A stretch of DNA of 63,323 nt from a virus (Duplodnaviria > Heunggongvirae > Uroviricota > Caudoviricetes), in IMG/VR virus record IMGVR_UViG_3300003973_000001, positions 64,001 to 127,323 of that record, one strand, 5' to 3'. The position numbers and the translations under genes are program-made. Of the stretch, positions 1,181 through 14,238 are shown in pieces (within the stretch, counting starts at the first letter, position 1; every line of letters begins with the position of its first letter). The notes below the pieces were generated by a model. It saw only the letters and a program-made list of their open reading frames with translations. It was not told where the DNA came from and searched no databases.

Positions 1181-1223
1181 TTAAACAAAAGTATTGCAAA
1201 ATGTATTTACCCTATGTTACATT
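1181..1223 (+). promoter_or_regulatory. sigmaA promoter of early operon overlapped by motif A
   Basis: TTGCAA 1194-1199, TG-n-TACATT 1218-1223. Confidence 0.7.
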
Positions 1224-1265
1224 ATTGATGTGCCAGTGAGACACCAACTCACAAGACACAAACAA

Positions 1266-1335
1266 GTTATCTACAATGCCCAACTGGGGCGGATAACCTA
1301 CGAGCGACTATAATGCCCAACTGGGGCGGTTGCTC
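1266..1335 (+). ncRNA. Tandem structured-RNA hairpins in the early-operon leader
   Basis: 18-nt direct repeat AATGCCCAACTGGGGCGG (1275-1292, 1312-1329), each inside a different but fully pairing outer stem. Confidence 0.7.
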
Positions 1336-1605
1336 ATTGTTACATAAATAAGAAATTGAAGGGAAGTGAAGGCGCAACGCCAACATATCACCGAATACGT
1401 AACATGCAAGGTGGCTAAACAAATAGCATGAATCTTTGACAACTAAATGACAGGCTTTAAAGTTTTGGGCTAAATAGACTGGAATGCTCAAGGCGACTAA
1501 AGGGAACATGTCGAGAAGCTTTGCTTTAAATTGATGGGCTGAAAATTTCAGAATATGAATTTAAATCAAAATTAAACTATAAAACAATGAATTGGAGAGA
1601 TTAAA

Positions 1606-2703
1606 ATGAAAGAACTAAAAGTAGCAGAATTAAAACAAGAGGTAAAAGCATTTCGTAACATCATTAACATGAACTTATCAGCAAAGGAAGAACTTGCAAC
1701 GGAATTAACAGGCGCTGAAATTTCAGCTCTAAAATGTGGTTATAGCGCTATGAAAAAGGCTGAATTAGTAGAATTGTATCAAGCGCTTATCGCTTTACGT
1801 GACAGACTTGATAAAGTAGTTGCTGAAATTGCTGATGCTGAATTTAAGGCGGAGGAGCAAAGCGCTCCTTCTTGTCCTGCTGTTGAGAATATGCTTGCAA
1901 TGGCATTAGGAAAGAAACCAAAAGTGAAAAAAGAGCCAAAATATGGCACTGTTGAAAAACGTACAAAATTAGTAAATGATAAATTAGAGCTTGCAAAGCA
2001 AAATACGAAGGATGGGGAAATGAGATTATTCTTCGGAAATGGTAACAAGAAATTAAATGGAATTTTAACTTTCTCATTACCACCAGTTGCAACATGTCCA
2101 TACGCAACGGAAAATTGCATCATGAAATGTTATGCGCTGAAAGATTACTACAGAAATTGGGATAACGTTTCAAAATCTCAAAATATCAATTTCGAGATGA
2201 CAAAGCGCGCTGATTTCGTAGACATGGCAACAAAAATGCTAAAAATCGAAGCTTTAAAACATGAAGTAGAAAATACAGTAAACGGCACTGATGAGCCTTT
2301 AACAGTTCGAATTCATGTATCTGGTGATTTCTACTCTCAAGAATATTTTGACGCGTGGGTTCAAATTGCTGAGAATCTAAAAGGATTACCAATCCAATTT
2401 GGATGCTACACAAAATCAATTCCATTCATCAAAACTCACTTAAAACGCGAGGGAAAAAAATTATCTGACATCAACATCAATTTCATGTTCTCTTTATGGG
2501 ACGACACAAAAGAAAAATTCGTTGCAATGGCTGAAGAAATGGGAATGAACGTCTTCACTGCATACAACAAAAAAACTTCTGATGTACCTGCTGATTATGT
2601 AGCGTGTCCAGATGATGTTAAAAAAGGAGCATGCGGAACAACTTGCAACATGTGTTATGAAAAGTCACCACGCAGAAAAAAAATTGCTATCGCGATTCAC
2701 TAA
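1606..2703 (+). CDS. GP88-like (radical-SAM-related Cys-motif) protein with N-terminal Rho-N/HeH-like helical domain
   Basis: FSLPPVATCPYATENCIMKCYA, RIHVSGDFY, C-terminal CPxxxxxGACGTTCNMC; N-terminal LKVAELK...GYSAMKKAELVE. Confidence 0.65.
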   Translation: MKELKVAELKQEVKAFRNIINMNLSAKEELATELTGAEISALKCGYSAMKKAELVELYQALIALRDRLDKVVAEIADAEFKAEEQSAPSCPAVENMLAMALGKKPKVKKEPKYGTVEKRTKLVNDKLELAKQNTKDGEMRLFFGNGNKKLNGILTFSLPPVATCPYATENCIMKCYALKDYYRNWDNVSKSQNINFEMTKRADFVDMATKMLKIEALKHEVENTVNGTDEPLTVRIHVSGDFYSQEYFDAWVQIAENLKGLPIQFGCYTKSIPFIKTHLKREGKKLSDININFMFSLWDDTKEKFVAMAEEMGMNVFTAYNKKTSDVPADYVACPDDVKKGACGTTCNMCYEKSPRRKKIAIAIH

Positions 2704-2787: not shown

Positions 2788-3270
2788 ATGAAAAAATTTA
2801 TCAAAATGTTATTAGTGGTTATGGTTACAGCTATCAGTGTAGGGATGTTTACAAAAGAAGCGGAGCAAAAAAATATTTCAGTACAAGCGGAGCAAATGAG
2901 CGCTCAAGAAAAAGAATTGCAAGACGTAAAGAAAGAGTTAGCAGACGCAAAGGAAAAAAATTCTCAAGCAGAAAAAATTACTACAATCAATCACTTCATT
3001 ATTGACAAGGTGGACGAAAAATTTGCTTATGCACTTGCAATTGATGATTATGGAACGTTTGAAGAAAATTATGTAGTAATCGAAAAAGAAGATTATTACG
3101 GTGTAGCGTACAAACAAGGCGATATAGTAACAATTTCATTCGATGGGTTTGGAGAGTTAGGAGACCACGAGCGCACGACACAAGGACAACTAGAGATGTT
3201 AAACGATGGATTTGGTGGAATCATAGAGAGTTACAAGAAAGGTTTTGAGGTTGAAAAGCCTCAAGCCTAG
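2788..3270 (+). CDS. Secreted or membrane-anchored hypothetical protein
   Basis: RBS GAGGAG; MKKFIKMLLVVMVTAISVG signal-like N-terminus; coiled coil. Confidence 0.7.
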   Translation: MKKFIKMLLVVMVTAISVGMFTKEAEQKNISVQAEQMSAQEKELQDVKKELADAKEKNSQAEKITTINHFIIDKVDEKFAYALAIDDYGTFEENYVVIEKEDYYGVAYKQGDIVTISFDGFGELGDHERTTQGQLEMLNDGFGGIIESYKKGFEVEKPQA

Positions 3271-3308
3271 TAACAGGCGAGAAAAAAATTTTAAAGGAGA
3301 GAAATAAA

Positions 3309-4024: not shown

Positions 4025-4381
4025 ATGAAAATTGTAAAATCTATTTTAAATGCATTAACTAAGAGAGCAGAAAAAGCAGGTGAAAAGAATTTGAAAAAGG
4101 TTTCTGCTACGATTCGTTACGATGTTGTTAAACGTGCTATTGAGCGTGGAGAATTTAAGAGCCTAGAGTGCGCGTACAGCTATACAGATGATTATTTATA
4201 TGATAATGCCACAAACTTCGGGAAACGCCTTGTAAGCGCTGAGGGACTGCTTAGAGAGTTTAGAATTTTAACGCCTTCATGTTGGGTTCGAATCAAAGAG
4301 AAAGACGGAAAAGAATATTATGAAATTAGTATCAGCTTTCATAGTAATTTAGCATATGACATGATAGTCCCTATGAATTAA
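4025..4381 (+). CDS. Hypothetical protein
   Basis: ORF with RBS. Confidence 0.7.
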   Translation: MKIVKSILNALTKRAEKAGEKNLKKVSATIRYDVVKRAIERGEFKSLECAYSYTDDYLYDNATNFGKRLVSAEGLLREFRILTPSCWVRIKEKDGKEYYEISISFHSNLAYDMIVPMN

Positions 4382-4440
4382 GATAGATATATATACATAC
4401 CAAACTAAAAAGAAATTTAACTATAGAGGAGAAATTTAAA

Positions 4441-4729: not shown

Positions 4730-5113
4730 ATGTTAAATATTCAATGTACTGCATGCGATGGTTTTGGGAATCAAAAATTTATTGATGGCAAATTGGTTCA
4801 TGAATGTACAGAATGCACTGGAGGAGCTATACAAGCCCCAGAGGACATGAAAGTATATGTAAGTGTATACAAGGTTACTAGAGAGTTTGGAGGACATGAG
4901 GAAGGTGGGTGGTGGTTTAACTGGTATCAATTACTTGAGACAGTCCCATGTAAAAATAAATTTTCAGATGAAATTAAAAGCGATTTATTGGAAGAATATA
5001 AGAATGTTAAACATGGAAATATTTATTCTGTATTAGGTGGCGCGGATGTAGAAGTGTTTATCGAGCGTAGAGCAGGAGAAAATAAAACAACTGAAAAGCC
5101 TATATATGAATAA
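4730..5113 (+). CDS. Hypothetical protein with N-terminal Zn-ribbon
   Basis: CxxC...CxxC; FGGHEEGGWW motif. Confidence 0.7.
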   Translation: MLNIQCTACDGFGNQKFIDGKLVHECTECTGGAIQAPEDMKVYVSVYKVTREFGGHEEGGWWFNWYQLLETVPCKNKFSDEIKSDLLEEYKNVKHGNIYSVLGGADVEVFIERRAGENKTTEKPIYE

Positions 5114-5125
5114 GGAGAAAATAAG

Positions 5126-5350
5126 ATGAACTTAATAGAGAAACTCAGAAGGTTTAAGGATGACCAAAATGAATTAGAACTTTCTGGTCAAATAACTGCA
5201 AGAAGAAAATCTTGGTTCAAATTTGTCAAATATGAAAACAACGTCCACATACATGCATATGTGGGAGGGAATAAGGTGAAAATATTCGATACATGGGAAG
5301 AAGCGGAAAAGAAATTGAAAATGTGGATTAATATGTTATTTGGTCATTGA
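5126..5350 (+). CDS. Hypothetical protein
   Basis: ORF with RBS. Confidence 0.65.
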   Translation: MNLIEKLRRFKDDQNELELSGQITARRKSWFKFVKYENNVHIHAYVGGNKVKIFDTWEEAEKKLKMWINMLFGH

Positions 5351-5418
5351 GGCGAAACGCGTGGGAAATCACGCGTATATGGTAGAGTGGTAATCTTCAT
5401 ACTGATGAGCCAAACCAT
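5351..5418 (+). ncRNA. Hammerhead ribozyme, type II
   Basis: GGC-GAAA-stem III (ACGCGTG/CACGCGT)-GUA cleavage triplet (5375-5377)-stem I (TATGG.AGA/TCTTCATA)-CTGATGA (5402-5408)-GCC; possible loop I TGGT/ACCA pseudoknot. Confidence 0.9.
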
Positions 5419-6175: not shown

Positions 6176-6529
6176 ATGAATGAGAAACAACGTCAACGTT
6201 TAGAAAAGATTGTAACACTATATAAGGACAGCTATAAACGTTTTGATTATGTAACTGGTGAGTATGAAAATATGGAATGGTTAGCATGTTTTGAGCAGGG
6301 TAAAAAATTAATCATGAAAATGATTGGTGAAATGGATAAGCAAAAGATGGTGGCTGTAAATATATTCTATATGCTTGTAGAAAAAGAAAGTTGGATTCCT
6401 CATCCAGACAAGGAAATTAGAGGAAAGGACTTTGGAGAGTTATTTCATAGCGCTTTAAATAAGTTAGGATTGAAATATGATGTTGTAGAATATGGCTCTG
6501 GTGGGAAGAATTACACGTTAAAAGGCTGA
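6176..6529 (+). CDS. Hypothetical protein
   Basis: ORF with RBS. Confidence 0.7.
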   Translation: MNEKQRQRLEKIVTLYKDSYKRFDYVTGEYENMEWLACFEQGKKLIMKMIGEMDKQKMVAVNIFYMLVEKESWIPHPDKEIRGKDFGELFHSALNKLGLKYDVVEYGSGGKNYTLKG

Positions 6530-6611
6530 AAAAATTTTTTGGCACTTGACTGTTACGGTGTGACGGTGTAACATCGTATTATAAATTAATTAATGGACTG
6601 GAGAGATAAAT

Positions 6612-7342: not shown

Positions 7343-7540
7343 ATGTTAGGCAAGATTAGATTTCATAAACCGAGTATTTGCATGACTCTGGAGGTCGAGA
7401 CAGGCAAGCAATTATCTTTCAAGAGTAATTGCATCAAAGAAGCGTCAGAGCGCTGTACGAAGCATTTACAGCGCTTAGGATTAAAGCATGGAGTTTTACG
7501 TGAGACAGTTACAAAAGAAATTTTAAAAACGTTCCATTAA
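7343..7540 (+). CDS. Hypothetical protein
   Basis: ORF with RBS. Confidence 0.6.
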   Translation: MLGKIRFHKPSICMTLEVETGKQLSFKSNCIKEASERCTKHLQRLGLKHGVLRETVTKEILKTFH

Positions 7541-7549
7541 ACAAAAGAT

Positions 7550-7578
7550 TTGCAATGTAATTAATTTAATGATATGAT
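7550..7578 (+). promoter_or_regulatory. sigmaA promoter overlapped by motif A
   Basis: TTGCAA-17-TATGAT with extended TG. Confidence 0.7.
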
Positions 7579-7621
7579 GTATCACAGGCACACAGACCAT
7601 AATAACGGAGGATGATTTTAA

Positions 7622-13823: not shown

Positions 13824-14159
13824 ATGACTAATACGCACGATTCGAAAAGACGACCAGAAGTAGGCGTTAAAGATATGGATAAATACGAAAATGGTGGACT
13901 TGAGATTGAGGAACGATTAACAAATGGATATTTAATGTATGTACCATATGGTATTCATTGTGATATTTTTGAGTCAATTGAAGTTGGTATTCGTTTGATG
14001 TCTAAAAGAATTGAAGAGTTAAACAAAACTCTTAATGAGATTACAGATGACACAGGCATCAATCCCTCTGTTAAGAGAATGCTTAAAGAGCAGATAGATG
14101 ACATGAAGAAGCATCTACATGTATTAGAGAAGATATCCCCAATCAAGCACGAGATTTAA
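13824..14159 (+). CDS. Hypothetical protein
   Basis: GGAGG RBS. Confidence 0.7.
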   Translation: MTNTHDSKRRPEVGVKDMDKYENGGLEIEERLTNGYLMYVPYGIHCDIFESIEVGIRLMSKRIEELNKTLNEITDDTGINPSVKRMLKEQIDDMKKHLHVLEKISPIKHEI

Positions 14160-14238
14160 ACAAATTTATTGCAATACATATTAAAAACTATTAAACTGTA
14201 TGAATGGATTAATAAATTTAAAAATGCGGAGGAACAGA

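Follow-up and report, generated by a model that had tools for sequence, protein, structure and literature searches.

Twin hairpins in an early phage leader

The leader of the early arm of this large Caudoviricetes phage carries twin hairpins that are two copies of a previously uncatalogued family of 32–34-nt RNA hairpins. Our preferred reading, to which we give a probability of about 0.5, is that they form part of a nut-like antitermination or anti-Rho site, in which a host-type boxA would be combined with a new boxB-like hairpin, duplicated in this phage. Given that the hairpin and an rrn-type boxA stand at the head of a long early arm, they would most likely help RNA polymerase to read through that arm.

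The stretch of DNA analysed here (the window, 63,323 nt) is the second half (64001–127323) of a viral record of 127,323 bp and 36% GC (IMGVR_UViG_3300003973_000001). Structural genes occupy the minus strand of the record between 8 and 55 kb, and a plus-strand arm extends from 55 kb to the record end and continues into the first 8 kb. At the level of DnaE the phage is related to large Bacillus and Clostridioides siphophages. Positions 1–1605 of the window are non-coding, and the twin lies within this region.

Unit 1 (1266..1297, + strand, 45.8 bits with our covariance model R1) reads GTTATC / T / ACAAT / GCCC / AACTG / GGGC / G / GATAAC and folds into a 6-bp outer stem, a U.G pair, a 5-nt bulge (ACAAU), a GCCC/GGGC inner stem and the loop AACUG. 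It is followed by a 4-nt spacer, CUAC (1298..1301, + strand), and by unit 2 (1302..1335, + strand, 47.2 bits), GAGCGAC / T / ATAAT / GCCC / AACTG / GGGC / G / GTTGCTC, which has a 7-bp outer stem unrelated in sequence, the U.G pair and a bulge AUAAU, its inner stem and loop being those of unit 1. A 22-nt core is common to both units; the outer stems differ and yet are complementary in each. The anatomy given in the initial annotation, that of two bulged hairpins 4 nt apart with the same loop and different but paired outer stems, can thus be read directly from the sequence. On the + strand, positions 1255–1345 fold at −30.1 kcal/mol (z = −4.28), with 0/200 shuffles folding as well, and the reverse strand of the twin folds about as well as its shuffles do (z = −0.65). 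The window contains exactly two copies of the 18-nt core, against 0 expected by chance, and the rest of the 127-kb genome has none. An enclosing helix (AACAA/UUGUU) predicted around the twin was dropped, as it is not kept in the close relative L005 described below.

Promoter and leader

A promoter-like site read from the sequence (1181..1223, + strand) lies upstream of the twin and consists of the operator-like motif TTAAACAAAAGTATTGCAA, a −35 element TTGCAA (1194–1199), an 18-nt spacer and an extended −10 element TGtTACATT (1215–1223), that is, TACATT (1218–1223) with a preceding TG. The placement of the twin just after the first promoter of the arm, as initially proposed, is plausible in that the upstream motif is common to seven other promoter-like sites, but the sequence itself is modest, scoring 8/12 and falling under the threshold of 9/12 of our simple promoter scan. 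The motif recurs with a correctly spaced −10 element at 7550, 14169, 14610, 18562, 22806, 29506 and 44591, which makes eight sites in the window in all. These form a promoter family with the common upstream motif TTAAACAAAAG(T/A)(A/T)TTGCAA (1181–1199, 7537–7555, 14156–14174 and five more), which we take to be probably a multi-copy operator of the SPbeta MrpR/SPBRE kind. Upstream of the early promoter, positions 1–720 of the window hold ~700 nt of C/A-rich, G-poor low-complexity DNA with TCATCA and ACATAC runs, and the GC skew of the window is negative there only. The word TGTTAC(A), which may be a regulator site, is found five times within 60 nt (551–610), again in the −10 region of the promoter (1216–1222) and once more directly after unit 2 (1339–1345).

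From ~1230 to the ATG at 1606 the leader measures ~375 nt, in agreement with the ~380 nt estimated at first, and the hairpins begin ~36 nt into it. The leader fold places a small 5' hairpin, GUGAG-ACACCAA-CUCAC (1236..1252, + strand), ahead of the twin, followed by an A-rich tail, ACAAGACACAAACAA, weakly resembling the sequence 3' of boxA in Bacillus rrn leaders. Further downstream, leader comparison revealed a short block, ACAGGCTTTAAAG (1450..1462, + strand), common to the leaders of the related elements L140/L141 and L145. A consensus scan of the window found no convincing intrinsic terminator, either in the leader or within the first 14 kb; a terminator-like hairpin is present in L140, 115 nt downstream of its hairpin.

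A hairpin family in phages of two phyla

Relatives were sought with sequence patterns (twin and single-unit) and with R1, which defines the family by C-G and U.G pairs that close the outer stem, a bulge of 5 nt on the 5' side with U as its last base, the GCCC/GGGC stem and a 4–5-nt loop ending in UG. Both window units conform to this definition, and the family comprises 17 aligned units together with L200. One relative is L005, a 126-kb phage whose GP88 protein (see below) is 96% identical; it keeps both units, with bulges AGAAU in each and loops shortened to 4 nt (ACUG and AUUG). With a relaxed twin pattern we found this architecture again in two Streptomyces proviruses of 66% GC, L021 (also L076, S. 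catenulae) and L026 (also L049, Streptomyces sp. MspMP-M5), whose outer stems differ from one another by compensatory and G.U substitutions. The single-unit patterns and R1 added the high-GC member L142, and single-hairpin low-GC members were found on contigs of 50–157 kb (L139, L140/L141/L147, L143, L144, L145/L146/L148 and L149). A fourth Streptomyces-type element, L200, came from a boxA-based scan and is a twin with bulges GAGAU and GGAUU. The family is thus spread over the 96% relative, about six other low-GC large phage lineages and four Streptomyces proviruses (L021, L026, L142 and L200).

Every genome examined has one site, single or twin, and the unit is single in 10 of the 14 distinct elements. 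Since most relatives have a single hairpin, the twin is not the basic unit but copies of one design, and the two-hairpin, put-like device with which it was first compared is not the design of the family.

Several further matches were rejected. Exact 18-mer matches in two viral contigs (L003 and L004) fall in high-GC coding regions and are due to chance; nearly all of the 94 matches of the twin pattern in genome and metagenome contigs code for Gly-Met-Pro repeats, only Streptomyces L049 and L076 being real; L008 is a proline-rich coding repeat; and L111, L150, L151 and L158 are without outer stem or without context. Following GP88 synteny led to the early region of mycobacteriophage Trixie, which is without the hairpin. 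The hairpin is not a host element: R1 found no copy beyond the provirus site in two Streptomyces host genomes and none at all in the rrn operons of Bacillus or Priestia, and of 151 Streptomyces genomes 2 gave hits.

That the element belongs to no named RNA family, as noted at the outset, was borne out by Rfam 15, which gave no match in the whole window at gathering score, nothing overlapping 1230–1450 at E up to 10, and no match at the hairpins of L005, L021 and L026. BLAST searches of GenBank phages with the leaders of the window and of its relatives returned no match over the hairpin, and no paper in the literature searched reports the core sequence.

Covariation supports the drawn structure in related and unrelated elements alike. 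Over the 17 aligned units 88.7% of it is paired, compared to 39–57% in slid controls, and RNAalifold predicts it independently. The outer stem covaries freely, with 5–6 pair types per position, and the alignment contains 44 double-changed cells against 16.8 in shuffles, six pairs changing on both sides. Invariant in the alignment are the closing C-G, the U.G pair, the AAU at the bulge end, GCCC/GGGC and the UG at the loop end, an invariance that is partly imposed by the search patterns for the pattern-found members, L200 showing that the AAU can vary. Loops seen were AACUG, ACUG, AUUG, AUGUG, GUGUG, AAGUG and AUAUG. Its U.G and G.U pairs (C.A if read from the opposite strand), a bulge present on one side only and folding confined to one strand suggest that the element functions as RNA rather than as duplex DNA.

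Position in the genomes and candidate binders

The site heads a long, co-oriented non-structural arm in G000, G003, G004, G005 and G156–G160, and in G000, G004 and G156–G159 the arm and the structural genes are divergent. The evidence thus supports an RNA structure that is both conserved and specific to one strand, placed in an untranslated leader at the head of a long co-oriented arm. Near-consensus promoters lie 30–250 nt upstream of the hairpin in L140, L143 and L146.

The first gene of the arm (1606..2703, + strand) encodes a protein with a GP88 domain (Pfam PF17338, residues 145–350). It had been proposed as a Rho-N-like protein that might bind the twin. This proposal found no support, as the N-terminus matches SAP at E = 0.053 only, under the cut-off, the remainder is the GP88 domain, and the other hairpin-bearing lineages have no homologue close to the hairpin. 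More generally, no ORF near the hairpin was found to be common to different lineages. The genes that come first after the hairpin are not the same from lineage to lineage and gave no informative Pfam hits, and small fast-evolving proteins would escape BLAST. A tblastn comparison of the window's phage with the Streptomyces proviruses (E up to 0.01) revealed no common protein. In an all-against-all BLASTP of eight carrier genomes, tyrosine recombinases were present in 7/8, with otherwise no near-universal protein; the low-GC carriers have in common structural genes, an HU-like protein, an antirepressor and a dUTPase. Neither an N-like protein nor any other was found in all carriers. With no common ORF and a hairpin that is not a host element, the partner would be a conserved component of the host or else a small, fast-evolving protein of the phage.

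Two other features of these regions were recorded. A divergent gene for a DUF3825 protein (PF12873, E = 1e-56 to 1e-65) lies 1–2 kb upstream of the hairpin leader in L141 (12685–13755) and L146 (3533–4501). A candidate type II hammerhead ribozyme is located in the window's own arm, directly after a stop codon (5350–5415); it scores 27.8 bits, below the Rfam gathering score of 37 (E = 8.7e-5 in the genome), with the CUGAUGA and GAAA core aligned. The S. catenulae provirus L021 has five type II hammerheads above the Rfam threshold (3206–3282, 4355–4417, 4981–5043, 6528–6591 and 7553–7619), located between early genes downstream of its boxA and twin hairpin. A general link between hammerheads and the hairpin was rejected, as none were found in the other hairpin-bearing phages scanned.

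Association with boxA

A boxA-like element, ATGAATCTTTGACAACTAAA (1428..1447, + strand), mimicking the boxA of rrn leaders, is located 97 nt downstream of the twin. It resembles Bacillus rrn boxA: it agrees at 12/13 positions with TCTTTGAAAACTA, a word common to the leader and spacer boxA of B. subtilis, and is close to GTTCTTTGAAAACTGAA of B. thuringiensis, the Bacillus rrn leaders having been taken from records filed as plasmids. The published B. subtilis boxA consensus, AUGAUCUUUGAAA, binds NusB (PMC13753749). ATGAATCTTTGACAACTAAA is unique in the genome and mostly unpaired in the centroid fold, and it is the best local alignment of the rrn boxA segments against the whole phage, by a narrow margin (31 vs 30 for the leader and 27 vs 26 for the spacer).

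The association is strong in the Streptomyces elements. Proviruses L021, L026, L142 and L200 each have a unique copy of the host rrn leader boxA (18–19/21 matches) 27–47 nt upstream of the hairpins, and a near-identical sequence precedes the 16S and 23S rRNA genes in the same host genomes. In the low-GC group it is suggestive, since most boxA-like words there are not individually significant against the B. subtilis 13-mer (p = 0.1–0.97). L140/L141 have GTTCCTTGCCAATTT 2 nt after the hairpin; L143, L145, L146 and L148 have TTGACAACT 17–35 nt upstream of it; and L149 has TCTTTCAAAACTT, also upstream. The order in L140/L141 is that of Bacillus rrn leaders: in B. subtilis a promoter and a small hairpin are followed by ATGATCTTTGAAAACTAAACAAGAC (the spacer having GTTCTTTGAAAACTAGATAA), and in B. 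thuringiensis a hairpin is followed by GTTCTTTGAAAACTGAACGAAAC. Overall, boxA and hairpin vary in order and spacing, with boxA 17–47 nt upstream, 2 nt downstream or 97 nt downstream.

Phage use of rrn-type boxA extends beyond this family. About 80 viral contigs of actinophages and prophages (L169–L245, e.g. L175, L193, L209 and L219) carry an rrn-type boxA, CTTGAGAACTCAACAG, in non-coding leaders or tRNA arrays; 24 of these contigs copy the host rrn leader over the preceding 19 nt as well, agreeing at 10 or more of the 19 positions (background 0.7%). In phage arrays of 18–31 tRNA genes the boxA comes just after the first tRNA gene (L191 2043–2060, L207 3775–3792 and L239 6274–6291), and the hairpins 3' of boxA in actinophage contigs differ by lineage. 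This distribution fits a boxA that protects long or untranslated transcripts with lineage-specific hairpin partners. The actinophage leaders look like widespread mimicry of the host rRNA antitermination leader, and the hairpin under study would be one lineage-specific, boxB-like partner of boxA.

A nut-like site as the preferred explanation

We compared the element with known antitermination signals. In lambdoid nut sites, boxA and boxB act with the N protein and NusA, NusB, NusE and NusG. Our site is similar in that a short rrn-related boxA stands beside a small hairpin in an early-operon leader, just after an early promoter, and in that the phage boxA is slightly off the host consensus, as it is in lambda. 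The hairpin itself is different: the likeness to lambda boxB drawn earlier from the GCCC stem fails, because boxB is a 5-bp stem with a GNRA-like pentaloop, whereas here a one-sided 5-nt bulge interrupts the stem and the 4–5-nt loop ends in UG. There is one site per genome instead of nutL and nutR, the hosts are Gram-positive, and no N-like gene was identified. The rRNA leader signal (hairpin, boxA and boxC, with NusB/S10, NusA and NusG) is matched by the boxA sequence at 18–19/21 positions in Streptomyces and 12/13 in the window, as well as by the hairpin-then-boxA order of Bacillus reproduced in L140/L141. Unlike in that signal, protein-coding phage genes follow rather than rRNA, and the 5' hairpins of the B. 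subtilis and B. thuringiensis rrn leaders are bulge-free and unrelated in sequence. Leader RNA elements of long operons are also known from Bacillus and its relatives, namely EAR, the LoaP leader hairpins and pLS20 conAn. EAR is in Rfam and does not match the window element, LoaP and conAn require dedicated proteins, and none of the three systems is known to have an rrn-type boxA.

The mechanism that we favour would start at boxA, where RNA polymerase would be loaded with NusB/S10 and with NusA/NusG. By way of its fixed bulge, its inner stem and the end of its loop, the hairpin would bring in or stabilise one more factor, perhaps an N-like protein of the phage, perhaps NusA or the polymerase itself. 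So modified, the polymerase would withstand Rho and terminators both in the untranslated leader of ~375 nt and along the early arm, which is long. The antitermination analogy of the initial annotation thus gains real support from the rrn-type boxA association but loses the resemblance to lambda boxB, and no conserved binder was found. Internal promoters along the arm, which lessen the need for processivity, also count against a nut-like site, as does the hairpin's departure from boxB. So do the absence of a convincing intrinsic terminator from the scanned part of the window, the changing order and spacing of boxA and hairpin, the narrow margin of the window's own boxA match and the weak boxA words of most low-GC relatives. 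The strong promoters upstream of the hairpin in relatives and the terminator-like hairpin of L140 count in its favour.

Alternative explanations

The hairpin could be an operator for a phage or host RNA-binding protein that governs stability, processing or translation of the early transcript, with boxA as a separate anti-Rho or incidental element; we regard this as unlikely, if the best of the alternatives. A fixed bulge and loop within a freely varying outer stem is the pattern of protein-binding hairpins such as the MS2/PP7 coat-protein operators, which are likewise bulged hairpins with fixed bulge and loop bases and a covarying stem, and in which tandem copies raise avidity. The analogy is limited to structure: neither the size of the bulge nor the sequences agree, and no coat protein is part of the setting here. 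Twins arose in two lineages, as would fit a dimeric binder, and the variable distance to boxA speaks against one rigid composite site. On the other hand, ~270 nt separate the twin from the first start codon, which makes direct translational control unlikely; the 240–250 nt between promoter and hairpin in L143 and L146 do not suit an element that simply protects the 5' end; RNase III would need longer stems; and a conserved candidate protein was found neither near the hairpin nor among the carrier genomes.

Less probable still is that the hairpin acts alone and in cis on RNA polymerase, with boxA unneeded, in the manner of HK022 put, an RNA that acts protein-independently on the zinc-binding domain of RNA polymerase beta'. 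The ~70-nt twin just after a promoter resembles put in its two-hairpin layout and could have a conserved host target, and a core kept in phages of two phyla whose sole common proteins are integrases favours a universally conserved target. Put, however, is made of two distinct stem-loops, both of which are required, in place of the near-identical copies seen here; most members of our family have a single hairpin; and a boxA-like element is near every well-resolved case.

A DNA-level site, either an operator for a DNA-binding regulator or a replication-origin hairpin, is very improbable. Each unit is an imperfect palindrome, a large non-coding region lies directly upstream, and in low-GC phages the bulge reads TAnAAT, resembling a −10 box. 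Against this, the two arms lose their symmetry on duplex DNA through the U.G/G.U pairs and a bulge on one side only, the + strand alone folds better than its shuffles, the hairpin is in every case oriented like the genes downstream of it, and the stems covary with no half-site kept. In Streptomyces the bulge reads TGAAAT or TGGAAT, without the key A of the −10 box, which also rules out the bulge as a sigma −10-like pause element.

We give the least credence to a ligand-sensing or catalytic module, such as a tandem riboswitch aptamer or a ribozyme part, which tandem near-identical small hairpins (known from some riboswitch classes), the hammerhead-like element in this operon and the five hammerheads in the Streptomyces provirus might suggest. 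Rfam has no match for the element, up to an E of 10; neither an expression platform nor an alternative pairing was seen; members with a single copy are common; and the other carriers scanned are without hammerheads.

Implications

A further reading, which we consider unlikely, is that what recognises the hairpin is no phage protein but a part of the transcription machinery that different phyla have in common, be it RNA polymerase, NusA or the NusB/S10-NusG assembly. If this is true, it would be a portable, host-independent antitermination hairpin working with the local host's boxA, and would represent a new antitermination RNA class, intermediate between put and nut, in phages of Bacillota and Actinomycetota.

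Processive antitermination in Gram-positive phages is poorly known. The possible use of boxA-based complexes in Bacillus has been addressed only recently (PMC13753749). A near-fixed hairpin core with a host-matched boxA in phages of two phyla offers an easily mutated experimental handle on whether Nus-factor complexes form on phage operons in Bacillus and Streptomyces, on what binds the hairpin, and on whether boxA mimicry is a general phage strategy for transcripts that are long or untranslated. Genome annotation would gain a new RNA family as well.
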